Below the pieces are notes generated by a model. That model saw nothing but the letters and a program-made list of their open reading frames with translations. It was not told the DNA's origin and searched no databases. From Amphiscolops sp. MND2022 (lineage: Eukaryota): 64,000 nucleotides of DNA. The position numbers were made by a program, and so were the translations under genes. The stretch spans positions 30,752,001-30,816,000 of the forward strand of contig OZ076413.1 in the NCBI GenBank assembly GCA_964187785.1, written 5' to 3'. Shown here in pieces: positions 1 to 46,248 of the stretch; the first letter of the stretch is position 1, and each line of letters begins with the position of its first letter.

Positions 1-506
1 TATAAGTCTGAGATAAGACAAGTGCAATGTAAGCAAAGAGAAAGTGGAGAATAAGAGTCGAGGGGGAGAAGGGGGAGAGTAAGTGTAAGAGAAGTAGAGG
101 AATTGATAAGTTGAGAGAGAGAGAGAGAGCTGTAAGTTGAGCTCAGCCGTCCGGCGGGAAAGAATGAATCTCCAGCCTGTGCGCGCGGTATAAAAACAGT
201 TCAGCACAGCTGTTGAAGTGCCTGGCCGGCATGTGTTGCATGCTACCAATGGTAGCTCAGCTTTAAAATTCAAATATCCGCGGTAAGAAATAGAAATTTT
301 CACTAGTGCAATTCCTTTCCCGTAGTATTCCATTACTTATTACTCCACTTCGAGGCCGCCGCGTTATGGCCGCCGCCATATTTACTTCAACTTTCCACTC
401 TCCACACAACGTTAGTTCAAGTTTTATGTTTCTCTTTGCACGTGTTATTTTTTATAATAGAAAGCGCCTTTTGGTGATTCGTTAGAGCGTTAGTCATAGC
501 GCGACA
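1..506 (-). repeat. 3' LTR (partial, truncated by window edge)
   Basis: Matches 16305-16810 with no indel; one substitution seen by eye (444 g vs 16748 a). Begins TGTCGCG on the minus strand. Confidence 0.95.
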
Positions 507-518
507 GCTCACCCCCCT
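507..518 (-). promoter_or_regulatory. Polypurine tract (PPT)
   Basis: Minus strand AGGGGGGTGAGC directly abuts the TG start of the 3' LTR. Confidence 0.75.
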
Positions 519-620
519 GGCAGGGTGAAAAAGCAACAACTTTACTAGAGAAATTTGGGGTCAGGTCAAGAAAGAGGTATTAGGTGAAAGAGCATGAGGG
601 AAGGGGGACATGTTTTAGCA

Positions 621-1523
621 CTAGGGTTTAGAAAAAAGGGGTCTGTCAAATTGAATTTGGATTATGACGGAGTCATTGTTTAGGAAGGCTTCTCTAAAGT
701 TTACCAGGAGTTTTGTGTGCGCGATGAAGTCTTCTCTCATCAGTCCTGGGAGTGTGTAGTCGTTCTTGTGCGGGTCTTCATACTCTTCTGTTTTGGAGGG
801 ATAGGGAAAGGAGATGGACCATTTGTTGTTCTTGTCTTTTTGGTCTATGATTGAGACGATCAATTGTTGCTCGAAAGGCCACGTCCGTGGGAGAGTGAAG
901 TCGCTGGGGTGTAGATCACAAGAAATTGAGGAATGGGTTCCGCGGAAGATGTTGGCGCCATAAGGGAATAGTCTGAGGGATATTTTGCAGCCGGTTAGGT
1001 GGGTAGTGTAGATAGGGCTAGTGAAGCTATTTTTGATGTTGTTCAACGCATCATTCGGGGAGGTCTTTGCTTTTCTGTATAGTGTGGAAAAAGCGGGTAT
1101 GTGCCAAAGGATGGGTTCACCACTTCTTGCGTCTAATACGTTGGTTTTGTTGAGTAGGGCGCCTTGAAACTTGATTGTCGCTTGTAGATTGGATATTGTG
1201 AGTTCCAAGTGATTACATTTAGTCCGCGTTTCTTCTGCCAAGTTTTGGAGTTGTTTCATTTCACTAGCAAACTTTGTTCTAGGCTGTTTTATGTCGGTTA
1301 TGGGAAACGATTTCCTTAGGATCGGGGTTACCTTTTTACTTTGTGGGCTAGTTGAGACTTCCAGTTCAGCGATCCATTTGTTCAATCTTTTGATTCCCTC
1401 GAGTGTCTCGAGGTCATCTTTATTCTCTGTCCTGGATAGAGGTGGCCAGTCGTTAGCTTTGGGGAAGGAAGGAGTGCTTTTTGGGATGAAGGGGATAGCG
1501 TCTGGGTTTAGCCTCCGATTCAT
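621..1523 (-). CDS. TRAF-like accessory protein: N-terminal PAM2-like motif, coiled coil, TRAF-C/MATH domain; no RING or zinc fingers
   Basis: aa ~135-293 (GEPILWHIP...FTSPIYT...GCKISLRLFPYG...RGTHSS...WPFEQQLIVSIIDQ...FLNNDSVIIQIQFD) follows the TRAF-C pattern (G.LIWKI...S.PFYT...GYK...R.Y.NG.G.G.GTHLS...WPF.QKV...L.DQ...Y..DD..FI...VD). Heptad-like stretch at aa ~86-128. LNPDAIPFIP at aa 5-14. Confidence 0.9.
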   Translation of the reverse strand: MNRRLNPDAIPFIPKSTPSFPKANDWPPLSRTENKDDLETLEGIKRLNKWIAELEVSTSPQSKKVTPILRKSFPITDIKQPRTKFASEMKQLQNLAEETRTKCNHLELTISNLQATIKFQGALLNKTNVLDARSGEPILWHIPAFSTLYRKAKTSPNDALNNIKNSFTSPIYTTHLTGCKISLRLFPYGANIFRGTHSSISCDLHPSDFTLPRTWPFEQQLIVSIIDQKDKNNKWSISFPYPSKTEEYEDPHKNDYTLPGLMREDFIAHTKLLVNFREAFLNNDSVIIQIQFDRPLFSKP

Positions 1524-2122
1524 TGTGCTGAGATGGCTCTTAGGGGGACCGTTAGTCTTTGTCCCTTTAGGGCTGGGTTCTCTATGGTGTACTCTTGTCT
1601 CTTGTTATCCCAGAAAACGATTTTCCAAGTTGAGAATTGTGGGAGGAGAGTGTATTTCAACTCTGTGTTGAATCTGGGCTTCTTAACGTGTCTTGCTCGT
1701 TTAGTGAAGTACTCCCGCTTGTGTTGTTTCTTCAGTGGCGTGTCATCTGTTATTTTGTCATTCCATTGTTGTTGGTGTTTCCTGGGTAGTGCCCGTCTTA
1801 TGTCTTTTCCGCCGAAGCGGGGTGGATGTTGGGGCGATCGAGGTGGATGTTGAGTTGATGGGATAGGCGCTACCTCTTCTGTAAATGACAGCGGAAAGGG
1901 GAGTTGTAGTGATGTCGTTGGAGAGGGTGTTGTTGTTAGGGCGCTTGGAATCGGAGAAGGAACTGTTGAGTCTGGGGGATCTAGGAGAAAGGTAATAGTT
2001 GTGGGAGAAGCAGGTGACAGCAGGTCAGAAGGTGATAAGGGTTCTATCTGCAAGTCGTCTTCTAAGATAGAGTTAGGGATGTCGTCGTCCAGGTTTGGGA
2101 GGTCGAATAAGGGTTCTAAATT
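1520..2122 (-). CDS. Accessory ORF without AUG: acidic/Pro-Ser-Thr-rich N-terminus, basic NLS-like patch, short beta-rich C-terminus
   Basis: The frame is open from 2122 (NLEPLFDLPNLDDDIPNSILEDDLQIEPL...) to TGA at 1520-1522 and contains no Met. It is preceded by GTTTACGTTTAG, which is acceptor-like. Its stop overlaps the TRAF ORF start (ATGA). Confidence 0.6.
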   Translation of the reverse strand, partial: NLEPLFDLPNLDDDIPNSILEDDLQIEPLSPSDLLSPASPTTITFLLDPPDSTVPSPIPSALTTTPSPTTSLQLPFPLSFTEEVAPIPSTQHPPRSPQHPPRFGGKDIRRALPRKHQQQWNDKITDDTPLKKQHKREYFTKRARHVKKPRFNTELKYTLLPQFSTWKIVFWDNKRQEYTIENPALKGQRLTVPLRAISAQ

Positions 2123-2153
2123 CTAAACGTAAACTACGAAATGAGATAATAAT

Positions 2154-4303
2154 TCATATTGGAGCAACAAAGCTCTGTACCGAGGGATATAGTGATTCCT
2201 CTTTTTGTTTTAGGATTTGGAGTTCTACTCCTTTTTCTTCGTCTTCTGTTTTTACCCTTTTGTCTTCAATGCTATCCTCGAAAGGGGCCCGCGGGGTAAA
2301 TACGGAAGTTAAAACAGAGGTAAAGAAAAGGTTGTACGAAGCACTGAGCAAGGTTTTAGTGAAGCTCAGTGTGTTACCTGTAAGGTGACGAAGTTCGAAG
2401 TAGCGGAAGACTAGTACCGTGATATCTATGACGAACTTGATAAAAAGGAAAGCGCCAAAGTACGCTCCGCAGAGTTCTAGTACATAAGATATACTTCCGA
2501 ATGTTTCGAGGAACTGATTTTTAAAGTAGTCGGGTGAAATCATTCCGTCGACATAGAAATCTGTACGAGGTGCGTAATACGCGAAGGATTCTGGTCCGCT
2601 GTGGGCCATGGAGGGTATGATGAGCTCTCTTGAGAACTTCTGGAGGGCATTACGTGATGCGGCGCTGATGAGGATGTTGTCCCAAAACTCGGAGAGTTGC
2701 TTGGGAGTGTACATTCCCGCGTCCTGTGATCCTGGGAAAGATCTGGTAATCATTGGCTGGATGTCTTTGGGTCCGAAGATAGCAGGCCGGTCCCGATGTT
2801 CGGGTGAAGGTGTAAGGGTGAACCAGGAGTCCTTGTCTTCCATGTCCAGTTGGAAGAGGTTCTTAATACGATCTGTGCAGTTTTGTACGTTCGCGTTAGG
2901 ATATGTTTGTCGGGTTATGGGGTCTACAAAGGCGACCACTCCCTTGTAGAAGATTGGTATGCGGTCGTAGCATTGGTTCATCGTGTGAAGAGGTGAGTGG
3001 GATTCCGGGCAGTGGTAGAGCCATGCGAGGCTACCATCTGTGTTCAGGAACATCGAGCGATTTCCCGTGAGCATGTATCCGGCGAGTCGTGGGTTTTCCA
3101 TGGATAACATCAGGATGGTAAGGATTTGTGTTCGTTCTTGCTCACATTGAGCTTTCAATAGCTGGATCTCTGAAGCTTCGAGTAAGCGGGTGCTCTCAAA
3201 GAAGAGATAATCTAACTTGGTTCCTTGGTGGAGTTCGTAATCCATGTTGAGATAATGTGGTGTGTTGGGGTTGGAGTCGCTGGGGCCTCTGAAGAGGTGG
3301 AGTCTGCCATTACCAGAACCATCGTTGGGTGAGTAATATTGAAGTTTGGAGGTTTCTCCCATGGAGATGCCGAGTCGTCTGCCAGAAGTCATGTCGAAGC
3401 CACCAAATTGGGTCGAAACGTAGAGGGATTCATAATTGGTAGGGTAGACATCATCGGGTTTGTTGCAGTATTTCTGTGGCCTGTTGTATATTTCGAATAG
3501 GAACTTGGTAGTGGAGTCGTTGCCGCTAACTATATAGTAGTTAGAGCCATGTTTGATCATATTCACTATTTCTTTTCTGTGGACTGCGAGCACGCAGTTA
3601 TCTGGCTCTGCCCATGTATAGGCGTACGGGTCCAATGACGTGGTTTCGCAGCCGAGTTGTTCCAGGGGGCAGGGGAGAACCATCTGGAAGGGTGTGAGGA
3701 TTTTCCCGTCTCTGGTTTTGACTGATAATTCTACGTCTTGAATATGAGATTCGAAGGTTTCGCGTTTAATCCATCCGCCTGTCTTGCACTCATTACGGGT
3801 ATCAGGGTCACGTACTCCATCCCAACTTTTTCCGTATTTGGCGTTTCTCGTCTGTACTTGTTTGACTCCTTTCTTAAATTTGAGGGGTTGTCCATGGATC
3901 ATGACTTCTTTGCCTTCGCCCATGGCCTTACAGGTTTCGGGTGACAAGGAAATATCGCTGGTGATTCCGTTGTGTAGGATTGACATACTGGAGTGGTCAT
4001 TATGACCACAATGCCATTCTTCACACTCTGGTGTTTCACACGGCACATAGTAGCGTTGATAGTGCGACGAAAGTGTTTAGTGTATAACGTCACGCTAGCA
4101 CGACTTACTTCTAAGTTTTCCGGGGCCACATTGCATTGCTCTACTTGATTCAAGGCGTAGAGCTTATTTTGTGTCATTTCGCCGCAGTCGAAATGAGTTA
4201 CTCGCAATTTTTTAGCAACGCTAGCGAGGTTTGGCGTTGAACGTTGTGAGTTCACAACGGGCGCGAAATTGGCGCATAAGAAGAGTAAGAAAAATAATTT
4301 CAT
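2154..4303 (-). CDS. env: Envelope-like type I membrane glycoprotein, probably class III fusogen-like; ~715 aa if the single frameshift near 4020-4030 is repaired
   Basis: Signal peptide MKLFFLLFLCANFAPVVNS. Cys-rich ectodomain starting HFDC...YALNQVEQC and continuing WHCG, with N-glycosylation sequons. C-terminal hydrophobic segment YVLELCGAYFGAFLFIKFVIDITVLVF. ORFs 3899-4303 and 2154-4046 overlap in different frames and join as ...CRVKHQS(EE)WHCGHND. Confidence 0.85.
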
Positions 4304-4382
4304 TGTTGAAATTCTTCAGTCTGTTTTTGAATCAACCGTGTAATCGCTCCCTGTTAAAGAATCAGTTTAAGTGTTTAGTAGA

Positions 4383-4838
4383 GACCGTAAAGAGGCAAGC
4401 CGTAATATCAAACCGGCAGCTTAGCTGGCACAACACTAAGCGGAGGTTAAAATTTTATAGTAGTAACCTCACTACTGTTAAAACGTGCCGAGGGGAACGA
4501 TAAGTATTTTATTATTTCAGGGAAATAGGTGTGTGTTCCAGAGAGGAGGATTCGTAGTAAGGCCGTAAAAAGGCAAGTCGTAATATCAAACCGACAGCTT
4601 AGTGGGCACTAGCACTAAGCGGAGGCTAAAATTTTATAGTAGTAACCTCACTACTGTTAAAAAAAAAGTGCCGAAGAGTAGGTTAATTATTGGAGCTTTA
4701 GTATATTTTATTATTGAGGATCCGTTATAAGGCCGTAAAAAGGCAAGCCGTAATATCAAACCGGCAGCTTAGTGGGCACTCGCACTAAGCGGAGGTTAAA
4801 ATTTTATAGTAGTAACCTCACTACTGTTAAAAAGTGCC
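4383..4838 (-). ncRNA. Three copies (4383-4489, 4561-4672, 4731-4838) of a ~108-nt structured, pseudoknotted cis-RNA motif upstream of env
   Basis: Conserved pairings AGUAG/CUACU with GAGGUUA/UAACCUC (H-type pseudoknot), GCUUAG(UG)/(CA)CUAAGC, GCCG/CGGC, and 5' GGCAC with loop GUGCC. Compensatory GCCG/CGGC to GUCG/CGAC change in the middle copy. Spacers between copies are unrelated. Confidence 0.7.
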
Positions 4839-4883
4839 AAAATAGGAAGTTAAAAGAGACTAACTTCAACCATTGCTGAAAGT

Positions 4884-5228
4884 TCAATTGTAGTTGTCAC
4901 GGATTGATTGTAGACTGGGAGAGGTTTTGTTTCGTCTTCTCAATTCGAGGAAGTCAATGAGCTTGTTGAGGAGGAACAGTGTTAGAGGGTGGATGTGGTC
5001 GAGATAGGCAATTTGCCTATATTCCTTTAGTGCGAGTGAGAGATCAGTAGCCTCTTGGGAGTTGGTGTCAACTGGGATGAGCCAATGTCCTGGGTTTTGC
5101 GGTCGGAGGCTATGGAGTTCGATTTGTAGTGAAGGTGCGTTTTCTTTCCAAGCGATAGAGAGAATTTCGAGAAGTGTATTTGTTTCAGGGTGGCGCCAGA
5201 GAAACTTGAGTTGAATCTTAAACATCAT
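4884..5228 (-). CDS. Small accessory ORF (114 aa), unknown function
   Basis: ATG start overlaps the upstream ORF stop (ATGATGTTTAA). Globular-looking composition; shares a motif with neighbouring small ORFs. Confidence 0.7.
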   Translation of the reverse strand: MMFKIQLKFLWRHPETNTLLEILSIAWKENAPSLQIELHSLRPQNPGHWLIPVDTNSQEATDLSLALKEYRQIAYLDHIHPLTLFLLNKLIDFLELRRRNKTSPSLQSIRDNYN

Positions 5229-5613
5229 AAGTGTCGACTAGGCTGTGAAGGTATTTGATTCTAACTTCTTCTTCGAAGGGGTTGGAGGTGAGAGTGATGT
5301 CCATAAAATAAACCAAGTCGTCGAAAGCCTTGTCTTTGAGAACTGCGGGGTGTTGGAGGATGTATTGCTTGAACGAAAGGAATAAGTAGGCGTATTCCTT
5401 GGATCCGAAGTGAATAGGGAAGAGGACTAGAGCTTCTTTGTCTTCTGGTGTGAGTATACGCACTTGAATCGCAGAGGTTGTGATCTCGTAGAAGATTGAC
5501 TGTATTTCGTATTGGCCCTTGAGTTGTATGGGAGTCCAAGGAACAGGAGGTTGAAACTGTGTGTGGAAGTAGTAATTATTTCCGCGGAACACGGCGACTG
5601 CGGGAGAGGACAT
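5218..5613 (-). CDS. Small accessory ORF (131 aa), unknown function
   Basis: ATG overlaps the previous stop as TAATG at 5611-5615; shared motif with neighbours. Confidence 0.72.
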   Translation of the reverse strand: MSSPAVAVFRGNNYYFHTQFQPPVPWTPIQLKGQYEIQSIFYEITTSAIQVRILTPEDKEALVLFPIHFGSKEYAYLFLSFKQYILQHPAVLKDKAFDDLVYFMDITLTSNPFEEEVRIKYLHSLVDTYDV

Positions 5614-5834
5614 TAAATGACTGACTTGGCTCTTGTGACGACTTCAGTAGGGGTGTTGTTATATAGCAAGCTCTCCAGTAGAGGGTAGATAGGTGATGCT
5701 GGCACACAAGTGTAGGTTTCACTTTCTTCTTCTGCTATTGCGTATGCTTGTACGATAATGTTCTGCGTTGAGGGTTCCTTCTGGATATCTGTGATTTGTG
5801 AAAGACGGTTGTCGATTTTGAAGATTATGATCAT
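5613..5834 (-). CDS. Small accessory ORF (73 aa), unknown function
   Basis: First of three coupled ORFs; starts at the edge of the AT-rich 5835-6123 spacer; shared motif with neighbours. Confidence 0.62.
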   Translation of the reverse strand: MIIIFKIDNRLSQITDIQKEPSTQNIIVQAYAIAEEESETYTCVPASPIYPLLESLLYNNTPTEVVTRAKSVI

Positions 5835-6123
5835 CTGTGAGATACTTCAGTGTTCACTGTTGTTCAAACATGGCAAATCTGAGAATGTAATCATCAGTTA
5901 TTTCATTGCGTTGGAGGACAGAGGTGTTTGAAAAGTATAAACACGATCTCGTAGAAGATCGTGGTTGAGTACAGAGAAGTTTCAAAAGATATATTCTATC
6001 TATTGTAGGATTATCGTAGGCGGTTTAGGCAAATAACCATAAGATATTGTTATAAAATAAGAGATAAATATTTGTTTAAGCATGCATTACTTTAGGACAA
6101 AAAAAAGCTAAGATATCTTCAGA

Positions 6124-6768
6124 ATGAGTAACAACAACGAGTCTGACTACTACGAGGAATCATCGACCGATGAGGAAACAGTTGCGTCTGCTGCTTCGTC
6201 GTCTGCTCCCTCGTCGTCTGCTCCCTCGTCGTCTGCTCCCTCGTCGTCTGTGGGCCCTTCGTCGGCCGCTGGGCCTTCTTTGTCGTTGGCTGGGCCTTCT
6301 TTGTCGGCGGCTGGGCCGTCCTCCTCTTCTGCGCCTGTTGCTGCTGTGGCCCCCAGGCCAGTCCTGCAGGCCTCCACAGTAGTGGCTCAAGGGGTTTTAG
6401 AGAACCCCGGAGAGCAGAGTTTTCTCAGCCTCTTTAACCGGAGGGACGTGGACCGGTTAGAGAATTGGGCCTCTTTGTCCCGTTCCATGCGGGGGTCTCC
6501 CGGGTTTGCCTTATCTGGGGCGCCCATCCCAAATGCCTTTGTGAGCTTCTTGAGGGCCAACCTGGGAGCCCGTTGGGAGGGAACCCTCCTGTCCCCTCTA
6601 GGGGAATTAGTGCTGTGTTAACTGAGGGCCTATATAGATGGGTTCTGCCAGTTGACCAGCTTCGAGAGGGGGCAGTGGGTGAGGCTGTACCAGTTATGGA
6701 CCAGAGAGGAGCGGGCTTCCCAGTTGAGGCGGCTAGCGGAGAAAGGCGGTTTCCTGGAGATTGAGTAG
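6124..6768 (+). CDS. Antisense accessory ORF (acidic N-terminus, Ser/Ala/Pro repeats, helical-looking C-terminus) with an in-frame TAA at 6619-6621
   Basis: ATG 6124 to TAA 6621 gives 165 aa. The same frame stays open for 48 more codons (LRAYIDGFCQLTSFERGQWVRLYQLWTREERASQLRRLAEKGGFLEIE) to TAG 6766-6768. 15-bp (SSSAP x3) and 21-bp tandem repeats keep the frame. Confidence 0.55.
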
Positions 6769-6930
6769 GCGCAAGTCGCCTCTCATCTCCAGGAAAATTC
6801 TCTACTATTTTTATACGCTTCTGTGCTTGTGGCTTTTCGTAAGTCATGTTCGGGATTGCACAAATAATATCGATAAACGGAAGTAGAATATATTAAAGGT
6901 AATACATCGCTAATAGGTTAAATGTGCCGG

Positions 6931-7317
6931 CTAGGAGCTAGGTGAGGAGATAGTCGAGCAGCAGAATAGGTCCTTTTGAGTATTGGGTGAGGAAGGTTGT
7001 AGGTCAGGAATTAGGGTAGGCATGTAGGATAAGAGTTCTTCTAGGATAGGGTCGTGATGGTTGACTGCATGGTAGGCTAGGTGCTGATATAGTTGAGCAA
7101 ACGTTTTGGATTCTGGGTGAACATGAAGATTTGATTTTCGGGGCGTAGGTTGTTTGTGGGGGCTCGGGTCTGGGTCGTTGGAGTAGAAGCAAATTCTAAT
7201 TAGTTTGTTTGTGTAGGTCCAGTAGATTTTTGTGATTGTAACGTGTAGAACGTTTAAGGATTGGAGTTCTCGTGGAACTTGCCATGATAAATTTAGGTAA
7301 ACTTTATGACAAGGCAT
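6931..7317 (-). CDS. Small accessory ORF (128 aa) immediately after pol
   Basis: ATG lies 8 nt downstream of the pol stop; shares a motif with the 73/131/114-aa ORFs. Confidence 0.65.
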   Translation of the reverse strand: MPCHKVYLNLSWQVPRELQSLNVLHVTITKIYWTYTNKLIRICFYSNDPDPSPHKQPTPRKSNLHVHPESKTFAQLYQHLAYHAVNHHDPILEELLSYMPTLIPDLQPSSPNTQKDLFCCSTISSPSS

Positions 7318-7325
7318 GATGTAGA

Positions 7326-10300
7326 TTAGGCTTTGTAGCCTACGCGAGTTTTTTGCCGAAGGATGGACAGTGGTGCTGGTTGGTTGGGTTGTGCTCGCTG
7401 ATAGCGGGGATTTCTTTCGACGTGACTTGCAACCGCTCGCCTGAGTTCTTGTAGGGGTGTCAAAGATTTGGTCGAAGTAGCCGGTGTGGTAGTCAAGGGT
7501 TCGGGTGTTATTTGTTGCGTCAGTGTTTGGATAGGAGTAGTTGAACCAGGAGGACGGGATGTAGTAGGCTGATCCGGAGTTGTTGGTGTTCCCAACCGGT
7601 GATTTTCTGGGGAAATAATACCAGAGTCGGTGCTCTGGGGAGTTCTCACTCGTTTTTGTGCGGTGGTCTGTCTTTGTTGGTTTCGGACTGGTAAAATGCA
7701 GAGATCCCCGAGTATCTGTGGTTCTGAAACATTAAGTCGTTCTATTCTTCCTTTGACAAAATTGTTATAGAAATCCGTGTCTCCACGGTAGGGAGTTGTG
7801 TATTCTTCTATAAGAGGGGGGAGTGTTTCCTCTTTGGGAAAGTATTCTATTAAATGATTTCTATGGACTGTTCGGAGATTTTCGGGGTTTTGATCGTTTT
7901 TTATTTGGTATGTTGTGTTGGTGATTCTCTTGGTAACTGTAAATGGTCCTAATCGCAGTTGTTGAAGTTTTTGGCTTTTGGAGAGGTCTTTCCGATGGTT
8001 TTCTAACAAGACCTTTTGTCCGATGTTGAGATGGCTGCCTAGTTTAAATCTGTTTCTGTAGGCATGAGATCTAGCTGTTTGTTTTCTGCATTTTTCGTAA
8101 GTGGACGAATAGATTTTCTTGAAGGCGGTCTCTCTTTCAAGCAAGTTTTGAGATAGTTGAGGTCTTAATAGTCCATTCAGCAGTTCGTTTTTGACTTGGT
8201 TTTCGCTGTGGCAGTGAGGAGGCAGTCCGTTGCAGAACTGTGATCTGCAATTCTTGTTTTTATTACGGTATAGACCCAACTTAAGACTCATAGGTATCTG
8301 TGGTTTATTGCAGAAGACTATTTCGTATGGTGTCTTTCCAGTGGTATAGTTGACGCTTGTGTTGTGGGCAAATGCGAATTTAGCAGCTAGTTGGGCCCAG
8401 TTGTTTCCTGAGTCGTTTAAGAAGTTTCTCCAGTACCTTGCAATGTGTTGGTTTTGGGTTTCCACTTTTCCGTTAGTCCAGGGTGAGTGTGCAGTTCTTG
8501 GCCGGAGAGTGATGCCTAACTCTTTAGTCCAATTGACGAATTCAGTGTTTACGAAAGCCGTTCCTCTATCGTGTATGATAGACTGCGGTATCCCATAGTG
8601 CATAATCCATTTTTCCATAGCGTTGATTGTTGACTGTGCACCTGTGTCTCTAACTGGGTATGCCATCAAGTAGCGTGAAAATGCGTCGATGATGAGGAGG
8701 CAATGTGAATTTCCACGACTGGGAGGGTTGAGTGGTCCCTTGTGATCGATATGAACAGTTCTGAATACTTGGGTCTCGGTTTCACAGTCCTCCAGTGGGA
8801 CTTCGTTATTTCTTCTTTGTTTGGATTTGTTAGATTGGCAGCTAACGCAATCTTGTGTGAGGGCACAAATCCAGTCGTGCATCCCGGGCCAGTAGTAGAA
8901 TCTTTTAGCATTTAGGTAGGTTTTCTCGGCTCCCATATGGCCTCCGAGGTCGTTGTAGTGTCCTAATCGGAAGCAGGCGAGAAATAAGGAGAGTGGTAAG
9001 CATATTCGAAGATTTTCTTCTTCCGTCTTATCTGTAGGTTCATTGTAGCACAGTAGGTTTCCGTTTTCTTCTATGGTCAATCTATCAAACTCTTGGGAAT
9101 AGCGCATGAGTCCTTTAGAGTGTTGTAATTCTGGTGATTTTGGCGTAGGCCTGTTTCCGGTTTGTATCCATCGTCGAACCACACTGAGCACCGGGTCATT
9201 GATCTGTTCTTGTAAGATTGTTGTGACGTCTAGATCCACTTCTTTTGATATTTTGTCGAGTTGACTGACGAGCTCTCGGGCTGGGGTCTTGTGTTTTTCC
9301 GTTGAATTTGTAGGTAGACTGAGGTGTTCTATTGCCTTTGCATTTTCGGGAATACCTGTGTTACGTGCGGTGAGATCTTCAGTGTTGAGCTCGTAGTTGG
9401 TCTCGTTTACTTCATGACTTTGGTTGTCTGTGCAGGCTTCATCATCTGCATCGCTATTGATGGAGCTGTAAGTATTCTGAGACGAATCGGAAGTGCTATC
9501 CCTTGTCCCGGATCTGATTTTTAGCTCTGAAAATTTTCCTAGTTCTCTTCCAGCGTCGAGACAACTCTGTGCTGACTCTATTTTCGGCAGGTTAGGTTCC
9601 TCGTAGATATTGTTAACTGTGAAGTTATTTCCATCGTTTTGCAGGTGAAGAATTTTTCGTTCATCTCCTTTTTCGTACAGGATGGGGTAGAAATCGTTTT
9701 TTGACGTTTCTTCGTTTTCTTCGTGTTTTATTTTGTAGTGTATTTGGGTTCCATGCTCGTCGAAGAAGTGAATATCGTTCGGTAGGATTTTGTGACTGAG
9801 TTGATGTTTTTTGTGTTCTTCTATCGATACGTTTCTGCTGAGTATATCAGGGAAGGCTAAATTGCTTCCTGGGGTCCAAATTATCTTGAGATTTGGGAAT
9901 TTAGAGATTATTACTTGGTACCTGAAGAAACGCGGTGAAACTTGTCCTTTTCGTCCCCAGAGATAAAGAATTGGTTTGTGGTCACAATATAAGTAAATTG
10001 GAAAGGGAGATCCAATGATATAGTGTTCGTAGGTTTGTAATGCTGAGACTATTCCACATAGTTCTCTATGTAGAGTAGACATTTTTTGTTCTTCTTTTGC
10101 GAAGACTCTGGAATTGAAAGAAATGATCCGTTTCCCTTCTGGAAATTGTTGTATGAGGATACATCCTGTCCCTACGTTGGACGAGTCGACGTGTATATGA
10201 AAGGGATATTTTGTTGAAGGTACCGCAAGAACTGTGTCTTCGCTGATTCTTTTCTTTATTTGTTGGAAGAGGTCTTCATGTTCTTGGTTCCAACAGAAAT

Positions 10301-12836
10301 TTGTATCCTTTTTTGTGAGTTCGTAAAAGGGTCGACTATCGACGTGAAGGTTCTTGATGTAGCAGCTGTAGAAACCTAAGGCTCCCAAGAAGCTTTTCAC
10401 TTCGGTTTTGGTTTTTGGTGATTTGAGATTATGTAGGTCTCTTACTCGTTTAGCTACGGGTTGTATTCCTTCTGCTGCAATCACATGTCCCAAAAACTTG
10501 ACTTTCCTCAAGAAGAAGAGTGTTTTGTCAGGTGCCGCTTTTAGTCCCGCTTTCCGTAGTAGGTTATGGTATTCTTGAATCACTGTGAACATTTCTTGTT
10601 TACTTTTCGCTTGCATCAACGTGTCGTCTATGTAGGTGATTGCTTGTTTCTTTTTAATGAGAGGTTCGAAGTGAATTGTCATCATTCGGCTAAAGAAGCT
10701 TGGTAACCCTTTAAGTCCGTAGAATCCTCTGGTGAAGGTGTATTGTTTCCCGCCTATGATGAAGCTTGTAAGTTTTTGTGTAGGCTCGTCTAATGGGACT
10801 TGGTGAAATGCACAGGAGAGATCACTTACTGAGAAGATGTTCCCGTTGATTAGTGTCATTATGGTTTGGATCGGTTCTAAGGGCCAGGAGTAGTTTGTTA
10901 GATCCGTCACTGAATTTAGGTATCTTGCGTCTATGATCAGTTTTACATAGTCGTGTTTTGGTTGTAGTATAATAGGATTTACGAATAAGGATCCCATTTC
11001 GTCGTCATCGCCCATCTCTCTGATAATATCGGCGTCTTTGAGTTGTGTGAGTAGCTTCTCTAACTTTTCTCTTAGGTGAAGTGGTACTTTGCTGGGTCTC
11101 TGTCTCTTCAGGATTGCTCCAGGTTCGAGTTTGATGTTAAATTTCTGTCTGGTTTTTCCTACGTCGAATTTGTGTTGGGAGTATACATCTCTCGCATCCA
11201 TTAGTTGGTCTATTAGGAGCACAAGTTCCTCGTCAGTAAGGTCTGAGTAGCGAAAGTCGAATTCTTTGATGTATTGCACTGCTTCTTTGTTCTGGTACTG
11301 AAGGTAATACTCGATCAGTCTTTCGTTGTCTTCTTTTTGCCTGAAGATTTTAAATTGCTCATCGCAGGGTGGTTGACAAGACTTTGCGTCACTCGTAAAG
11401 TCTGTCTCCAGCTCTCTATGTTTAAGGTGAAATTGCTCGGAAAATTGTTGTATCTCGTCTTCCAGCGCGTATTCGGGGTCTCCTCTCGTAGTCATAGCAT
11501 AGACGTCTAGTTCATTTCTTGTATAAATTCGGAGTTGTATTTCCGAGTAGGCAAAAACATCTTGAATAATTTGTGTCACATCTTGCCATTGGAAATCTTC
11601 TAGTTCTGACGCTTCTCGTAACATAGAAATGGTCTTGATACAATTCATTTTGGCGTGTGCTTTTAGAGTCTCTAGCGTTTGGACTAAGATTTGTGGGTCG
11701 ATTTTGTCTTTTGATTTAGCTTTTGTGATTAGGACGTATATGAATCGTTTTAGATTCATGTCCCAGTAAGGTATTGTATCCCCTTTGAGTGGTTTCTGTT
11801 TTGCGCAAGATTCTTTTAACAAGGGTATGTTCGTTAGGATTTCTTTCGAGAAGCCTTTGGCTGGCTTCAGATCTGCCGGGACAAAGATCATGATGGAGTC
11901 GGGTCTGCTGAGGATTGTAGTAGAATTTCCTCCTTCTATTCTGATGCAATCGTTCATATCTTGTGAAGGGATGGTGGAGTGCAACAGGAAACAGTCATTG
12001 TATTCTTCGTTTTCGTTTAGGATAGCGTAGGCGAGTTCCGTAGGGTTTCTAACTTGGTATTTTGGAATTTCTTGGTCTAATACGTCGAGCAGAGAGTATC
12101 CAATAGTTCCTTTTACTAGGGTGATTGTATGGTTTTTGTTATTTTCCATGACGATTGGCAAAGTCTTCTCAAATCTTGTACAAAGGACATTTATAAAATT
12201 TAGTCCTGTAGAGACTGCTTTTCTGTTGGGTAGGAACGTAGATCCGGGAGGAAAGGAGTTCTTGGGGTTTTCCGGTGCAAATTTGTAACATCTTGTCGTC
12301 TTTGGTTCGATATACATTGAGTGAGGAATTCGGACTGAGAGTATTTGTGATACGTAGGGGTAACATTTGTTGAGTTGTAGACTGCCATAGCAGAAAGTAT
12401 TTATAGGTCTTTTGAGTTCTATGCCAGGAAGATCAAAGTGTATTTTGTTAACTTGTTCTTGACAGAAGTTCATTCCAAGGAGGTTTTGGGTCTTCATCTC
12501 TGTTATCCAGACTGTCAGTGGGAAGTTATGTTGTCCATCGGAATCGTAGTAGAGTTTAAGGGTGATGTATCCCATCATAGGGATGATCTGCCCAGAGTAG
12601 TTCCGTGTTGTGTTGTTACTTCTGCTGAGTTCGAGGTCTTGTTGAAATTGACAGAGTTCTCTAAAGGTCCTGTAGTTAATGATTGAAGATGTTGCCCCAG
12701 TGTCTAGTAGAAATTCGATTTCTAAGCCACTATCTTTTTGTGAGTCTCCGGCAGCAAAATAATAAAGATTAAGACTAAATTTTAGTGGGGCAGTGCTGCT
12801 GTTACGGTTTTTCGGAGACCTTAATAGTTTAAAGGG
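7326..12836 (-). CDS. pol: Pol: aspartic protease, dUTPase-like spacer, TARG1-like macrodomain, RT, RNase H, integrase
   Basis: The frame is open upstream of the tracked ATG to the gag end and includes FLLDTGA (DTG at 12696-12704). RT YIDD; RNase H HVDSSNVG...DHKP; IN HHCC (H...GH...CVSC), D-D-E core (HIDHKGP, HDRGTAF, KVETQN) and LGPF. Confidence 0.96.
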   Translation of the reverse strand, partial: PFKLLRSPKNRNSSTAPLKFSLNLYYFAAGDSQKDSGLEIEFLLDTGATSSIINYRTFRELCQFQQDLELSRSNNTTRNYSGQIIPMMGYITLKLYYDSDGQHNFPLTVWITEMKTQNLLGMNFCQEQVNKIHFDLPGIELKRPINTFCYGSLQLNKCYPYVSQILSVRIPHSMYIEPKTTRCYKFAPENPKNSFPPGSTFLPNRKAVSTGLNFINVLCTRFEKTLPIVMENNKNHTITLVKGTIGYSLLDVLDQEIPKYQVRNPTELAYAILNENEEYNDCFLLHSTIPSQDMNDCIRIEGGNSTTILSRPDSIMIFVPADLKPAKGFSKEILTNIPLLKESCAKQKPLKGDTIPYWDMNLKRFIYVLITKAKSKDKIDPQILVQTLETLKAHAKMNCIKTISMLREASELEDFQWQDVTQIIQDVFAYSEIQLRIYTRNELDVYAMTTRGDPEYALEDEIQQFSEQFHLKHRELETDFTSDAKSCQPPCDEQFKIFRQKEDNERLIEYYLQYQNKEAVQYIKEFDFRYSDLTDEELVLLIDQLMDARDVYSQHKFDVGKTRQKFNIKLEPGAILKRQRPSKVPLHLREKLEKLLTQLKDADIIREMGDDDEMGSLFVNPIILQPKHDYVKLIIDARYLNSVTDLTNYSWPLEPIQTIMTLINGNIFSVSDLSCAFHQVPLDEPTQKLTSFIIGGKQYTFTRGFYGLKGLPSFFSRMMTIHFEPLIKKKQAITYIDDTLMQAKSKQEMFTVIQEYHNLLRKAGLKAAPDKTLFFLRKVKFLGHVIAAEGIQPVAKRVRDLHNLKSPKTKTEVKSFLGALGFYSCYIKNLHVDSRPFYELTKKDTNFCWNQEHEDLFQQIKKRISEDTVLAVPSTKYPFHIHVDSSNVGTGCILIQQFPEGKRIISFNSRVFAKEEQKMSTLHRELCGIVSALQTYEHYIIGSPFPIYLYCDHKPILYLWGRKGQVSPRFFRYQVIISKFPNLKIIWTPGSNLAFPDILSRNVSIEEHKKHQLSHKILPNDIHFFDEHGTQIHYKIKHEENEETSKNDFYPILYEKGDERKILHLQNDGNNFTVNNIYEEPNLPKIESAQSCLDAGRELGKFSELKIRSGTRDSTSDSSQNTYSSINSDADDEACTDNQSHEVNETNYELNTEDLTARNTGIPENAKAIEHLSLPTNSTEKHKTPARELVSQLDKISKEVDLDVTTILQEQINDPVLSVVRRWIQTGNRPTPKSPELQHSKGLMRYSQEFDRLTIEENGNLLCYNEPTDKTEEENLRICLPLSLFLACFRLGHYNDLGGHMGAEKTYLNAKRFYYWPGMHDWICALTQDCVSCQSNKSKQRRNNEVPLEDCETETQVFRTVHIDHKGPLNPPSRGNSHCLLIIDAFSRYLMAYPVRDTGAQSTINAMEKWIMHYGIPQSIIHDRGTAFVNTEFVNWTKELGITLRPRTAHSPWTNGKVETQNQHIARYWRNFLNDSGNNWAQLAAKFAFAHNTSVNYTTGKTPYEIVFCNKPQIPMSLKLGLYRNKNKNCRSQFCNGLPPHCHSENQVKNELLNGLLRPQLSQNLLERETAFKKIYSSTYEKCRKQTARSHAYRNRFKLGSHLNIGQKVLLENHRKDLSKSQKLQQLRLGPFTVTKRITNTTYQIKNDQNPENLRTVHRNHLIEYFPKEETLPPLIEEYTTPYRGDTDFYNNFVKGRIERLNVSEPQILGDLCILPVRNQQRQTTAQKRVRTPQSTDSGIISPENHRLGTPTTPDQPTTSRPPGSTTPIQTLTQQITPEPLTTTPATSTKSLTPLQELRRAVASHVERNPRYQRAQPNQPAPLSILRQKTRVGYKA
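11520..11948 (-). other. TARG1/OARD1 (Poa1p-like) macrodomain within Pol
   Basis: RFIYVLITKAKSKDKIDPQILVQTLETLKAHAKMNCIKTISMLREASELEDFQWQDVTQIIQDVFAYSEIQLRIYT aligns by eye, without gaps, to the TARG1 C-terminal half as recalled (RYIYYLITK...L..SLEAMKSH...LSMPRIGCGLDRLQW..V...IEEVF...I.I.VY). Confidence 0.8.
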
Positions 12837-14275
12837 CGAATATCGGCGACAGAGTTCACCGAGTAATCTGTTTCGAGAAACTGTACGGTGTTATGTCTTC
12901 CCATGTCGTTAGTTCTAGGGAACCTTTGTTCGTAGGTTTGAGTGGGGGTGTTTGGTCTTTCGTTTCTGTTTTGTGGTCTATTAAAGACTGAGTTATTCCT
13001 TGGTGGAAGAGGCTGTATGTTGCGGTTGAAGGAGTTAGGCTGGTCTCTGTTGAAGCTGAACGGAGATCTTGCTCTTTGGGGCCCAGGAGAAACACTTCTG
13101 GAATTGTTAGAATTGTTTAGAAAAGGTCTTCTTCCTTCTTGTGAAAATCTTTGGTTACCAGGACTGAATCTTGTATTCATAGGTCGGCGTTCTGGGTTGA
13201 AATTTCTTCTTTGTGGTCTATCATATTGGTTCCGGGCAGGGTTTGACTGCATGGCTCCAGCAAGTGCTAGTTGATGTGCCACAGCCATATGTTTTCTGAT
13301 TTCTGAATCGGGTAGTCTAGTTTGGAATCTAGAACCATGTCCAGGTCCAGTTCTTTTGTTGTAATCGTTGGTGAAAGTTATTCGTCTCTCTGGGTTGGAT
13401 TCATTTTGAACTTTCTTGATTTCTTCATCTCTCATCTTCTTTCTGCACCAGTTAGGCGTATGCCCATTTGTTCGGCAGTAGCTGCAAAACCTGGTGGCCA
13501 TTCTACGTCCTGTTGCGTTCGGATCAACAGTTTTCTCTATTGCATTAATAGTGTTGTTCGTCTGTTCTTTGATTTGTAGCTTGATTCCTTTGATGTCTTC
13601 TCGCAATTCTTGGATGAGTGGGTCTGCGTGTGATTCTCCACCGGTGAGAGAGGTAGTTACTGTGTAAGAAAGGTCTTTGTTTATTACAGCTTGAGAGAAC
13701 TGCTCCCAGGTTGCATTCGGATGATCCATTAAGTATTCGTGTGCCTTTTCCCTCAGTTTCGGGGGTCGAAGGCCTCTCAGTGAGTAGTCAATGCACCTCT
13801 GTCTTCTTTGTCTGTCTTGTGCTGCTCTTTCGGCGTCTCTATTGTTCTGTGCGACTCCGGCTAGATCATCTGGCCATCCTTTTCCGACTACTATTTTAAT
13901 TCTGTGTAGGAAGTTCTTTATTTCTTCTCCATCTCGTCTGATGACGTGTTCGGCTTCCATTCTGTGTCTAAATTTGTTTCTGCCATCTGCGAATCGCGTT
14001 ATGAACCTCTCTCTGATTTCTGCCCAAGTGTTAGCGTCTGTGATGCTGGTCTCGAACCACTCTGCTGCGGGTCCTCTTAATAGTGTAGCAAAATAGGATT
14101 TTCTTCTGAAGTTGTAGTCATCAAGTGCTGGTCCGTTGGCCGGGGTATCACCGTGAGAAAACCGGAACTTCTTTTCAATGAGCTGTATGAATTGTTCAGG
14201 ATCTTGATCTGGGTCTGTTCCTGTGAATTGGTCTCGGCCTAGGTCTGGATAAGCCAAGTAATTTTGCGCAGCCAT
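12821..14275 (-). CDS. gag: Gag (capsid-like region, CCHC zinc knuckle, Arg/Asn/Pro-rich tail)
   Basis: 484-aa ORF upstream of pol; CSYCRTNGHTPNWC = C-X2-C-X4-H-X4-C; LRGPAAEWF and LRGLRP resemble retrotransposon capsid motifs. Confidence 0.92.
   Translation of the reverse strand: MAAQNYLAYPDLGRDQFTGTDPDQDPEQFIQLIEKKFRFSHGDTPANGPALDDYNFRRKSYFATLLRGPAAEWFETSITDANTWAEIRERFITRFADGRNKFRHRMEAEHVIRRDGEEIKNFLHRIKIVVGKGWPDDLAGVAQNNRDAERAAQDRQRRQRCIDYSLRGLRPPKLREKAHEYLMDHPNATWEQFSQAVINKDLSYTVTTSLTGGESHADPLIQELREDIKGIKLQIKEQTNNTINAIEKTVDPNATGRRMATRFCSYCRTNGHTPNWCRKKMRDEEIKKVQNESNPERRITFTNDYNKRTGPGHGSRFQTRLPDSEIRKHMAVAHQLALAGAMQSNPARNQYDRPQRRNFNPERRPMNTRFSPGNQRFSQEGRRPFLNNSNNSRSVSPGPQRARSPFSFNRDQPNSFNRNIQPLPPRNNSVFNRPQNRNERPNTPTQTYEQRFPRTNDMGRHNTVQFLETDYSVNSVADIRPLNY
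12827..12836 (-). promoter_or_regulatory. -1 programmed ribosomal frameshift site (overlapping C CCU UUA and U UUA AAC)
   Basis: Minus strand CCCTTTAAAC is in the gag frame two codons before the gag TAA. The pol frame is -1 relative to gag and open through this site. Confidence 0.85.
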
Positions 14276-15290
14276 TGTGAGCTATTGAGGTTATAAAAGA
14301 TAGAAGATGAAGTAAGGAAAAATAAGCCAAAGACTCTGTGAGGTATGATACTCCTGGTTTTTGAGAGTAACTACAAAGAGCGGAAGTAAAAATTGTTTGT
14401 ACAATGATTCTAACAGTGATAATTATTAGGCAGGTCTGACAAAACATATACTCCGTAATTCGCTGCTAGTAAAAATGAAATTAGCGCATCTCAGCCCAGG
14501 ATAGGCACATTCCCAGTATTTATTACTGAAATTTCAAAATTTTTAGGGGATACTTACAAATCCCGCTTGTGTTACGATTACCGTAAAAAGGGTAGTTCGG
14601 AGTATACCAATCCTCCGAGTTAAGCTTAAAAGATTGGAGAGTACAGTCGGTCCAATAGGTCTTCAATTCGCTAGACTAGCCTTTCAATGGCTTTTGTAAA
14701 AGTAGTACTAGAACTAACCAACAGAGGGAGTCACTCTCGTCCTCAGGATTAAGTGCGCGGGGCCAAGATCACTATCATGCAAACACTCGGGTACTATCAC
14801 TAGAATACTAGGTTTCCCACTTGGAATGCTACACAGGTTCCGGGACACCCACTGGGCTCACGGCCTTCAACCAGTCTCCGAGGAGACCTAGGCGGGCTTT
14901 TACTTAATGTGTGTCCGTCTGGACTTGAGTGAACTTCCCAACTGTAAGTTTAAATTCCGTGTTAGAGGGCAGTTTCATTCTTGTTTAGGACCGAATGTAG
15001 TCTAGCATTTCCGTAAAAATAGATCAGCGCTAACCTTTTTGTGGATTGAGAGGACTAAGTTGGGTAGAGCACAGTCTCTTCCAACGGCTGTTAAGCTGGA
15101 GAGATTCTATTAGAGTATTTACTAGCAGTTCTGTAATTTATATAGACTAAAGAAGCCACATATTGGGGCAGTAGGAGAAAAAAGAAAATCAGAAGTAAGA
15201 TTAAGAGAAATAGGTAGTTAACCCTAACTTCTGAGAGTAGGGATTCGAACAGATTGCTCATTTACTTCTCTATAGTAAGAGAAAAAGGAT

Positions 15291-15308
15291 GCCTCACTGG
15301 TCGCACCA
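15291..15308 (-). promoter_or_regulatory. Primer binding site
   Basis: TGGTGCGACCAGTGAGGC starts 3 nt after the 5' LTR end, complementary to a tRNA 3' CCA end. The tRNA identity was not determined. Confidence 0.85.
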
Positions 15309-15311
15309 GTT

Positions 15312-16810
15312 TGTCGCACGCATGGATAAATTTCAGTTCTGCTATTTTACAGTTTCCTCTTTTAGAGGGGAATTCCAAATTTGTTATCCGTATTAGTCAG
15401 CCCAGCTGTTACAACATTTGGCAAAATGCTTTTCCAACAACTGTTGTTTTATTGAAGTAGAACAAGTAGAAAAGTCTCAATAACTTAATTTCTTTTTTGT
15501 AATACCGAAAAGAAAGTGCCTTGCGTGTACGTGCGAACAAAGGAACTTGCGTGAGTAAGTGCAAGGCAGGGAATGTAAATGAGCTCTCTGAACTAAAAAA
15601 AAAAACATATGTTAGCAAACTTGTTGAATTACATAAAAGAGTTGAACTTCAGACATATCAGTTTTTATTCAACTGTTTACAAGTATTCAGTCAAACTCAC
15701 CAAATTTATTTGCCAGCAACCGAAGTAATATCTTAGCTATTTCAATTTAGAGCATAAATTGATGAAGAAATTTAGCATCGAAGGAAATTCATAGTAATTT
15801 CCTTTAGTTCGAAGAAAGTTTTTTTACGAAAAATCCAGTTTTGGTGTTGTAATAACTTAGACAACACTATTTAATTTTATAGTCTCTACTCCTTTGTTTT
15901 AGGAATAGCATTAAGACTTTAGGAATAGCATCTTTTTTTTTTTTTTGAATATGGGAATGGTAAAGACAAATAAGTTAACAGGGGAAAACCGCAGAATTAA
16001 ATCAGCAGAATTATTCTAAGATAGAATTTTAACAACCGCAGAATTAAATCAGCGGAATTATTATAAGATAGAATCCGCAGAATTGAATCAGCGGAATTAT
16101 TCTAAGATAGAGTTTAGTTAGAAGGAGGGAGAGTAAAAAATCTCCTCTAAAAGAAAAAATCTAAGATATTTTCGACTCACCCAACTGGAGACCAAGTTGA
16201 ATTGAAGAGAATTTTCTAAGATAGAAAATTCTGTTGGGGAATAGAGAAAAGGAAAAGATAAGTTTTTGCTTGAGGAAAGGGAGAAAAGGAGGAAAGTTTG
16301 ACTTTATAAGTCTGAGATAAGACAAGTGCAATGTAAGCAAAGAGAAAGTGGAGAATAAGAGTCGAGGGGGAGAAGGGGGAGAGTAAGTGTAAGAGAAGTA
16401 GAGGAATTGATAAGTTGAGAGAGAGAGAGAGAGCTGTAAGTTGAGCTCAGCCGTCCGGCGGGAAAGAATGAATCTCCAGCCTGTGCGCGCGGTATAAAAA
16501 CAGTTCAGCACAGCTGTTGAAGTGCCTGGCCGGCATGTGTTGCATGCTACCAATGGTAGCTCAGCTTTAAAATTCAAATATCCGCGGTAAGAAATAGAAA
16601 TTTTCACTAGTGCAATTCCTTTCCCGTAGTATTCCATTACTTATTACTCCACTTCGAGGCCGCCGCGTTATGGCCGCCGCCATATTTACTTCAACTTTCC
16701 ACTCTCCACACAACGTTAGTTCAAGTTTTATGTTTCTCTTTGCACGTATTATTTTTTATAATAGAAAGCGCCTTTTGGTGATTCGTTAGAGCGTTAGTCA
16801 TAGCGCGACA
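15312..16810 (-). repeat. 5' LTR, 1499 bp, termini TGTCGC...GCGACA
   Basis: 6-bp terminal inverted repeat with TG...CA ends; PBS adjacent; right part is duplicated at 1-506. Confidence 0.92.
15989..16113. repeat. Three 39-bp imperfect direct repeats inside the LTR
   Basis: ccgcagaattaaatcagc(a/g)gaattatt(c/a)taagatagaat at 15989, 16036 and 16075. Confidence 0.9.
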
Positions 16811-18234
16811 TATGGCTCATTGGATAAGATACTGCCCGACATCCTAAACGGCAAACTGAAAGTTGTCCAAAACCGGAGAAAGACGGAATCAAACACCGAT
16901 GATAACGAAGATGACGGAGGAGAGATGCCGGAAGAATCCATACAACATATCAGAACGCGATTGGCGGTACGACCAAAACGGACATATTCGGAAGACGACG
17001 TGATATAGATTCACACTGACGGTGAAATCCCACAGGGTGAGAAAACGTAACCTATAATACGGTGACCTAGCCGAATTAAAAACAAATTGAATAGACACGG
17101 TAGCATACCATATACTGGAAGTTTTTGGGGGATAAAATTGTTAGAAATGTTTATACTATTGCAGGTACTAAGTGGAACGCAAGAAAAGAAACACCACTGC
17201 CCGAGAACGTTCAGAAGCCTGCCGACTTCTTGCTTGGGGAAATGACCCCACCGGGATCATCATTCTTCCTCTAAAACGACAAATGGGAGAGGGAGAGAGG
17301 GGGAAAGTAAAACGATTGACTCCAATTTTAGTCTGAAATTTTTTAGTGACGGCATCAATTGTACCAAACTTGCCACCGCGTTATTGCCAAAGTTCAACTA
17401 GACAACACTGGCAAATGGGTTTTGTCGCCGTGGACTTGTTAGCTCGACAATGCAAACAGGTTTTTCACCCTTCAAATCTCGGCTTTGAACTTTGGACGAC
17501 CGTAATGCGAAGGAACACAGATTTCACCACAGTGCGCTTGGACTTAGCGTTTCCAGTGTGCAACTGAAATTTTTCTGTTTGCGGAATGTAAGGCACTTTC
17601 TAGCTACCCACCTCCAAGGTTAGACACGACTTTCACTTCATCTAGCCACCCAGTGTGAAAACGTTTGAAACTCTTGATAAAAATCTTGCATTTTCGTGAA
17701 ACCCTTGGTAAGAATCTTGGCAAGATAATTATCAAGAGCCCCAAGAATATGTACGATCTTGCAAGATCTTGCAAAGAATTCAAGAGAAAAACTGACAAAC
17801 GTGAATAAAAACAAACAAAAACCGACGCCAACTCGCGGCTTGATCAGTGTACCTATTATACCGCAGAAGTTCACGCTACCAACCAAGCTGTTACGTTCTG
17901 GATTATTATACTTTGTCTTGTCATAAAAGGAACGCTTCAAAGAATGACAGTGTAGTTGGTGGTGCGAACAATAGCAAAGCAGGTGTAAACAAAATTGTTG
18001 TTTGTTTTGCAAGTATTCATTTTCTTGACACTCTTGATAAGACTCCCACCAAGATTCATCTCAAGAAGTTCAAGAGGTTCTTCTTGAGAGGTTCTTACGG
18101 GAATATGTAAGAATATGAAAGATCTTGGCAAGAGTTTCAAGATGTTTTGCACTGGGCAGTTCAACTTGAAACTGTTCAACTTCAGTTGCCACCGAAGTGC
18201 CAAAAGAAGGCCTCCCAGCATCTAGCTTAACCGT

Positions 18235-27367: not shown

Positions 27368-27380
27368 TGCTTGCGACAGT

Positions 27381-27398
27381 TCCCGGGTCGCGGCACCA
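27381..27398 (-). promoter_or_regulatory. BEL primer binding site, tRNA-His-like
   Basis: TGGTGCCGCGACCCGGGA, 3 nt after the 5' LTR; resembles the complement of the tRNA-His 3' end (TGGTGCCGTGAC...). Confidence 0.75.
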
Positions 27399-27401
27399 AA
27401 A

Positions 27402-41500: not shown

Positions 41501-41699
41501 CGAGTCAGCTAGCACCATCATTTAATTCATTGCTCGAACAACTTGAAGTTTGCTAACATATCAGGTTGGTTTGTTTCTTCTCGATTTTAAGCTATTATAA
41601 AATAAAAGTATAAGTTTTGTAGCTCAAGAAATTTGACTAAGTTCTTTTCCTCAACACCCCCACTCAGATTGTTCCGGATGTCGTAGGGAGAATCTGCAT

Positions 41700-46032: not shown

Positions 46033-46234
46033 TGCAAGTTTTTTCGAACCTACTAAGCTCAGCCGATAGTTTATTTTTTCTATCGTTGAGTAGTGCAATG
46101 CTAACCTCCCAGTCACAACCTGTCTAAACCGGAACCGGGTTAGCTACTCAACGGCTGAGATCCTACTAAGCCTTTTGAATTGGGACGTGGGATTTATTCC
46201 CCCTAGATTGATTGGACAACCTAATTGCCTTTCA

Positions 46235-46248
46235 CTGGGCCCATAACC
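46235..46248 (-). promoter_or_regulatory. Copia-type PBS for an initiator tRNA-Met half-molecule
   Basis: GGTTATGGGCCCAG directly after the 5' LTR, the same sequence as the Drosophila copia PBS. Confidence 0.85.

Follow-up and report, generated by a model that had tools for sequence, protein, structure and literature searches.

The closest described relatives of the protein treated here come from retroelements, viruses and hosts. MATH_TRAF_C domains in Gypsy elements are published for the planarian Burro/GYPSM1 (PMC6431247). Burro is a Gypsy LTR element whose env is related to the glycoproteins of mononegaviruses and which has captured a MATH/TRAF-C domain; the domain is found in a polyprotein of 4,873 aa or upstream of it, beside BIR, BCL2-like and RING motifs, and in Dugesia tigrina as a separate accessory ORF (PMC6431247). 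The hallmark of Burro is its giant polyprotein with BIR, BCL2 and ankyrin domains, in which env follows gag and precedes pol without a change of frame. TRAF and MATH do not occur in the main text of a recent survey of env-bearing elements (PMC13524379). Many MATH/TRAF transcripts without RING are described for planarian genomes, and vertebrate TRAF1 consists of TRAF-N and TRAF-C without RING (PMC7586133). ORF111L of the megalocytivirus ISKNV, a DNA virus gene closest to fish TRAF2, encodes a TRAF that combines a coiled coil with a MATH domain in about 300 aa; its N-terminal RING is retained, and the protein binds to TRADD and is pro-apoptotic (PMC3352826). PAM2 motifs, ligands of MLLE domains, are defined structurally by L3-N4-(P/V)5-A7-F10-P12, with Glu9 preferred (PMC2854688; PMC7356810). 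Known PAM2 proteins (eRF3, Paip1/2, Tob, PAN3, Ataxin-2, LARP4) are host-encoded regulators with an LNxxAxxFxP-type motif in a disordered N-terminus.

The protein described here is encoded, as in D. tigrina, by a separate accessory ORF of an env-bearing Gypsy element. It resembles ORF111L in size, coiled coil and MATH domain, but is RING-less; it resembles TRAF1 in the absence of RING, but is without the receptor hot spots that TRAF1 retains (PMC6125299) and possesses a PAM2 motif. That motif stands in a disordered N-terminus, as in the host regulators; unlike those, the protein is retroelement-encoded and the motif is fused to TRAF-C. No report of a PAM2-TRAF fusion, or of a PAM2 protein encoded by a retroelement, was found in the mostly open literature searched.

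Layout, copies and expression of the carrier element

The window, i.e. the whole stretch of 64,000 nt that was analysed, contains a minus-strand, env-bearing Ty3/Gypsy LTR retrotransposon, 17.8 kb in length, with LTRs, polypurine tract (PPT), target-site duplication, gag, pol and env. The order from 5' to 3' is 5' LTR, gag, pol, three small ORFs, env, TRAF ORF, PPT, 3' LTR; all coordinates of these parts refer to the minus strand. The 5' LTR (TG...CA) is at 15312..16810; the 3' LTR (1..506) runs on for about 1 kb past the left end of the window. Over the whole pair (15312-16810 and -996..506, the latter partly from the neighbouring stretch) identity is 99.67%, with one substitution and small indels. 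From this identity and a flanking target-site duplication, TATG (16811..16814), the element is concluded to be young. A PBS-like TGG... stretch, read from the sequence, follows the 5' LTR (15292..15308). Pfam identifies gag (12821..14275) and pol (7326..12578), the latter with RT, RNase H and integrase in Ty3/Gypsy order. The env gene (2154..4303; ORF list, Pfam) belongs to the Monjiviricetes fusion family and is frame-broken in this copy. Of 18 sister copies, 16 have env open, with 715 aa, and all 18 have a TRAF ORF of 300 aa.

The TRAF ORF, 300 aa, occupies 621..1523, where the plus strand carries 14 stops. No further gene lies between it and the PPT (507..520, read from the sequence and conserved in subfamilies A–D); its stop lies about 100 nt ahead of the PPT and of the TG with which the 3' LTR starts. 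An intact 300-aa ORF just upstream of the PPT in an LTR-bounded unit had been claimed in an earlier note made from the sequence alone, and the paired LTRs and the minus-strand frame bear this out. A Burro-type polyprotein and BIR, BCL2 and ankyrin domains are absent from the element (ORFs, Pfam): gag, pol and env are separate. Unlike in Burro, the TRAF ORF is the last ORF after env, is coupled to a further frame, ORF-X, and carries a PAM2 motif, which is unmentioned for Burro in the available part of the published account.

A genome search with the TRAF ORF gave at least 132 matches (506 candidates, 131 scored). Among the matches listed, 19 copies at 98–100% constitute subfamily A, to which this copy belongs; further subfamilies lie near 67% (B), 58% (C) and 36% (D). 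A family search gave at least 150 scored matches, and 28 of the 30 loci read represent two further families, E and F (pol at about 54–62% to this element), the other two being host exons. In the representatives fetched, E and F possess, within paired LTRs, an ORF for coiled coil + MATH at the corresponding position behind env. A multi-copy deleted derivative (L098-L099, G000:C13 22.17 Mb, and similar matches), a non-autonomous form with LTRs 99.7% identical, retains only env fragments and roughly the last third of the TRAF ORF.

Several minor features are present between pol and env. A small conserved ORF of 128 aa lies directly after pol (6931..7317; ORF list, copy comparison), and two of 131 and 114 aa follow (4884..5613; ORF list, Pfam, copies). 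All three are conserved in B–D and without Pfam family; dN/dS of the 131-aa ORF is about 0.03 (A–B). An antisense Ser/Ala-rich ORF is present at 6124-6621 on the plus strand, and sister copies as well as subfamilies B, C and D have antisense ORFs of about 200–235 aa at this position. A unit of about 110 nt occurs in three copies, 170–180 nt apart, at 4380-4840, just upstream of env; these repeats show no folding gain over shuffles (z -0.75 to -1.37) and no Rfam match, and Rfam gives no match over positions 1-17000 of the window.

ORF-X (1520..2122), a frame of 200 codons without ATG between env and the TRAF ORF, is conserved and selected, with dN/dS of 0.06–0.11 among A–C. In 7/7 A–D copies examined, the stop codon of ORF-X and the TRAF start codon overlap in the sequence ATGA. 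The start of ORF-X is acidic and proline-rich, the C-terminus basic/aromatic with 70–92% identity across A–D; homologues are present in E, F and a metagenome contig (L152). ORF-X has no Pfam match, and atlas searches with it and with the N-terminal half of the TRAF ORF gave scores of 0.80 or less, which are leads only. A predicted splice acceptor (pyrimidine tract + TTTAG, 2123..2150), the same in A–E, opens ORF-X. A donor-like site in the 5' LTR (TTG|GTGAGT, 15700) is present also in B and C. Donor-like site, acceptor and ATGA overlap suggest a spliced, subgenomic RNA, from which the TRAF protein would be expressed by stop-restart translation at the overlap. As a guess, ORF-X could correspond to exon 2 of a regulator of the Rev type.

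Elsewhere in the window, an intact BEL/Pao element (19479-28045) has identical LTRs, each containing a 198-aa ORF with a weak GDSL-like match (E about 0.001, below cut-off), and a Ty1/copia element (40595-47115) has near-identical repeats and split gag-pol frames.

Fold of the TRAF ORF and selection on it

The product of 300 aa has the architecture PAM2 – helix – coiled coil – TRAF-C/MATH (Pfam, PDB, AF2, Foldseek). Two Pfam matches are above cut-off: MATH_2 (E=8.9e-12, residues 139-291) and TRAF-mep_MATH (E=1.2e-10). The best PDB sequence matches are TRAF5 and TRAF4, with E about 2e-7. AF2 with a 72-row alignment gives a pLDDT of 79; the model shows two helices, 35-57 and 79-124, together with a beta-sandwich. 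Foldseek with this model ranks TRAF4/5/3/1/2 at the top, with E from 4e-12 (TRAF4) to 2e-9, and megalocytivirus TRAFs as top viral fold matches. The TRAF-C/MATH beta-sandwich is C-terminal (residues 139-291, 651..1109, minus strand; Pfam, PDB, Foldseek, alignment). It is preceded by a TRAF-N-like coiled coil (residues 79-124, 1152..1289, minus strand), an AF2 helix with pLDDT mostly >85, in which one heptad register is hydrophobic at 10/14 positions versus at most 7/14 in others. RING and zinc fingers are absent from the ORF, with only three scattered Cys and no Pfam zinc match. The TRAF-C pattern, preceding coiled coil and lack of zinc modules read earlier from the letters are hence all recovered, and the HMM search then proposed finds the MATH fold. 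A homotrimer of coiled coil and TRAF-C, mushroom-shaped as is typical of the TRAF family, is predicted from the fold.

Near-full-length matches (at least 280 residues) are without stop in 48 of 59 cases among the matches listed. In subfamily A the TRAF ORF is open in 19/19 copies, and env is broken in 3/19. Pairwise NG86 dN/dS on natural copies is 0.187 for A–B (bootstrap 0.12–0.26) and 0.147 for A–C (0.09–0.24), i.e. 0.15–0.19 between subfamilies, the A–D comparison being saturated and within-subfamily values noisy, with intervals that include 1. The ratio is 0.12–0.16 for the MATH part and 0.05 for the TRAF genes of F and F2; among core genes it is about 0.056 for pol and 0.036 for env. The TRAF gene is under purifying selection, though changing faster than core genes; disruption or neutral evolution in most copies, named earlier as grounds for giving up the decoy idea, is not what the copies display. 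That the gene is a neutral passenger without function is accordingly extremely improbable: its dN/dS is 3–5 times that of pol and env, and the noisy within-subfamily intervals would agree with neutrality, but between subfamilies dN/dS is 0.05–0.19 at dS >1, and the TRAF ORF stays open in every A copy while env does not.

Host relatives and the receptor-binding groove

The host paralogue near 90.867 Mb of G000:C3 has four exons with three GT-AG introns and a predicted product of 493 aa, comprising half a zinc-finger remnant, a coiled coil and a MATH domain with YPYG; it has no RING, and in-frame stops lie upstream. Unlike the element gene, it has the three introns, the zinc-finger remnant and an FQRP loop, and no PAM2. 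It belongs to a host RING-less subfamily with the signature (Y/F)P(Y/F)G, together with P0076, P0079, P0084, P0057 and P0066; database relatives are without RING or zf-TRAF in Pfam in 7/7 cases, although some may be partial gene calls. The MATH signature and an FP(L/I) motif are common to this subfamily and the element protein. The motif LRKSFP (1302..1319, minus strand) resembles by eye the (R/K)xFP(L/I) of the subfamily; MAFFT does not place the two in register.

In a tree of 31 MATH rows, with 10 canonical TRAF rows as outgroup, a 98/98 branch separates the element and host-subfamily domains from the host's two canonical-type MATH exons. A–D cluster, on a long branch, with a group containing a lineage absent from this genome (98/95). 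A 65-row tree from a quick search agrees with this grouping (SH-aLRT 99). AU tests do not reject placement of A–D with canonical TRAFs (p=0.096), and they neither establish nor reject a single origin of all element copies (p=0.28); the common env–ORF-X–TRAF order favours one capture. The nearest host relatives seem to be RING-less already, therefore no RING need have been cut off. A processed copy of a RING-less host paralogue, rather than a truncation, is the likely and simplest reading of the sequences. The phylogeny against host TRAFs thus upholds the capture of a host TRAF proposed in the earlier note, but not its derivation by truncation of TRAF2/3/6.

No host TRAF gene reaching from RING to MATH was found in the stretches examined. 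A gene with RING and zf-TRAF is present (L109, G000:C10 42.09 Mb), with no MATH exon found in about 40 kb downstream, including an N gap. Two canonical-type MATH genes are present (L080 and L115, G000:C2 79.08 and 90.14 Mb), with no RING exon found within the 30–40 kb examined around them. Multi-copy relatives of the RING-less subfamily (L139-L142, L145, L151; G000:C1 78.43 Mb, C8 57.33 Mb, C76, C1843) sit within pairs of roughly 3-kb inverted repeats. Their surroundings are free of gag, pol and env, and their frame breaks where the last intron of the host gene sits; they are likely a second, DNA-transposon-like capture.

In TRAF1/2/3/5, a serine triad together with an Arg/Tyr pocket holds Px(Q/E)E receptor peptides (PMC6125299). 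Of these hot spots, tested in the element protein, only the Arg is kept (hot spot 3, R184): in the alignment to TRAF5, SSSFKRP stands opposite TEEYEDP, and Tyr is replaced by Phe. The loop near residues 241-260 has neither serine triad nor FxRP, and AF2 pLDDT is low there. The host subfamily, E and F all retain the FxRP loop, which is lost and variable among A–D. A receptor-tail decoy of canonical kind is, judging by these residues, unlikely. The earlier note had proposed a truncated, TRAF2/3/6-like dominant negative that occupies TNFR or TLR-adaptor tails and blocks NF-kB/JNK. Its architecture is that of a RING-deleted TRAF, TRAF4/5/3 are the best PDB matches, the hot-spot-3 Arg is retained, and the host possesses TIR domains and a RING + zf-TRAF gene; searches of the host genome for TNF ligand and Rel domains, run without positive control, gave no match. 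Against it stand the lost serine triad, Tyr and FxRP, the position of the canonical-type host exons across the 98/98 branch and the predicted RING-less state of the nearest host gene. The proposal is weakened further by the PAM2 motif, which points to MLLE partners, and is now very unlikely.

The protein might imitate the host RING-less TRAF or act as a decoy for it, altering stress or cell-death signalling by co-assembly through the coiled coil or by competition for partners, with PAM2 only localising it; as the present role this is rather unlikely. The element gene groups with the host subfamily in trees, E and F retain the F-x-[RK]-P loop of the host gene, the inverted-repeat element apparently captured the same host gene family too, and planarian Burro bears MATH_TRAF_C with BIR and BCL2-like domains (PMC6431247). 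However, the loop is lost and variable in A–D, and the coiled coil belongs to the parts that change most quickly (28–62% identity), hence is poorly suited to fixed hetero-assembly. Acting as such a decoy may have been the original function, still present in E and F.

The PAM2 motif and its candidate partners

A PAM2-like motif, LNPDAIPFIP, overlooked in the earlier note, occupies residues 5-14 of the TRAF ORF (1482..1511, minus strand; Pfam PF07145, E=0.004, 17.2 bits) and is a predicted MLLE ligand. It fits the published positions L3, N4, P5, A7, F10 and P12; the preferred E9 is absent. On 25-aa N-termini, Pfam gives 17.2 bits for A (this copy), 21.0 for B, 20.7 for C and 17.2 for D, so that B and C are above the cut-off of 20 and A and D below it. 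The pattern LNxxAxxFxP occurs once, in the TRAF ORF, in 587,904 six-frame residues. It is kept in 28/30 copies (L001-L030), one copy with stops having lost the Ala and one not being captured; Phe is replaced by Ser in 1/2 copies of D. Anchor codons differ synonymously across A–D, and the motif is kept down to about 37% identity, its invariance in one alignment being partly circular because rows were picked by the pattern. The metagenome contig L152, with env identical at 130/212 aligned residues and an ORF-X-like frame ahead of its TRAF gene, has a PAM2-like start (Pfam E=0.011, weak) on that gene, which bears one stop. The pattern is absent from the TRAF genes of E and F; therefore PAM2 cannot be the original reason for retention of the gene.

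Residues 1-34, which surround the motif, have no secondary structure and low pLDDT in AF2, i.e. form a disordered, exposed segment. A (D/E)WPP(L/I/M) motif (residues 25-29, nt 1437-1451), C-terminal of PAM2, is conserved in A–C. A PDB search with the 25-aa N-terminus gave no match. The host encodes a PABPC that has both RRMs and an MLLE domain, the latter near 28.33 Mb of G000:C5. A model of residues 1-34 in complex with this MLLE, made without alignments, has a median of 0.33 against a mark of 0.34, which counts neither for nor against binding.

The conserved motif points to partners with MLLE domains. The preferred reading, which has an even chance of being right, is an intact, selected accessory gene captured from a RING-less host TRAF, whose PAM2 binds the MLLE of PABPC and makes the protein an mRNP adaptor. 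It builds on directly supported parts: the ORF, its fold class and position, selection, the PAM2 sequence match and the host PABPC. Coiled coil and TRAF-C would trimerise and present three PAM2 peptides; these hooks, if binding is as predicted, would grip PABPC MLLE on poly(A) RNA with avidity; the trimer would compete with the host PAM2 proteins eRF3, PAN3, Tob and Paip2; stability or translation of the element RNA would be favoured; and the remodelled TRAF-C face may recruit a non-canonical partner. The broader proposal that a trivalent PAM2-TRAF trimer hijacks PABPC, or the UBR5 ligase, by way of MLLE as a post-transcriptional weapon falls a little short of an even chance.

Retroviral Vif or Vpr supply a ligase in trans to degrade their targets. 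By analogy, the protein could be a recruiter of UBR5/HYD, with PAM2 bound to the MLLE of the HECT ligase and TRAF-C to a host restriction factor, which would be degraded. MLLE is found in UBR5 as well (PMC2854688). A gene with MLLE and HECT, encoding a UBR5-like ligase, is present in the host, its MLLE near 39.51 Mb of G000:C7, and both the substrate-binding role of MATH domains and the remodelled groove are compatible with such a recruiter. The restriction-factor target is, however, only hypothetical, PABPC as a rule outnumbers UBR5 by far, and the same motif could suit either MLLE; recruitment of UBR5 is distinctly unlikely, and PABPC is the preferred partner.

Most of the top TRAF/MATH matches examined in this genome sit in mobile elements, which calls for caution in counting such matches as host immune genes. 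Hardly any accessory gene of invertebrate env-bearing retroelements has been characterised; the TRAF ORF has a readable architecture and hundreds of copies, and offers a host gene as candidate donor as well as a motif of ten residues testable by peptide binding. If the broader proposal is true, this would be the first retroelement-encoded PAM2 protein found in the literature searched, a TRAF re-armed by a linear motif instead of RING. If PAM2 works as predicted, survival of the retroelement would be tied to the PABP/deadenylation hub, and the TRAF scaffold would be repurposed outside signalling.
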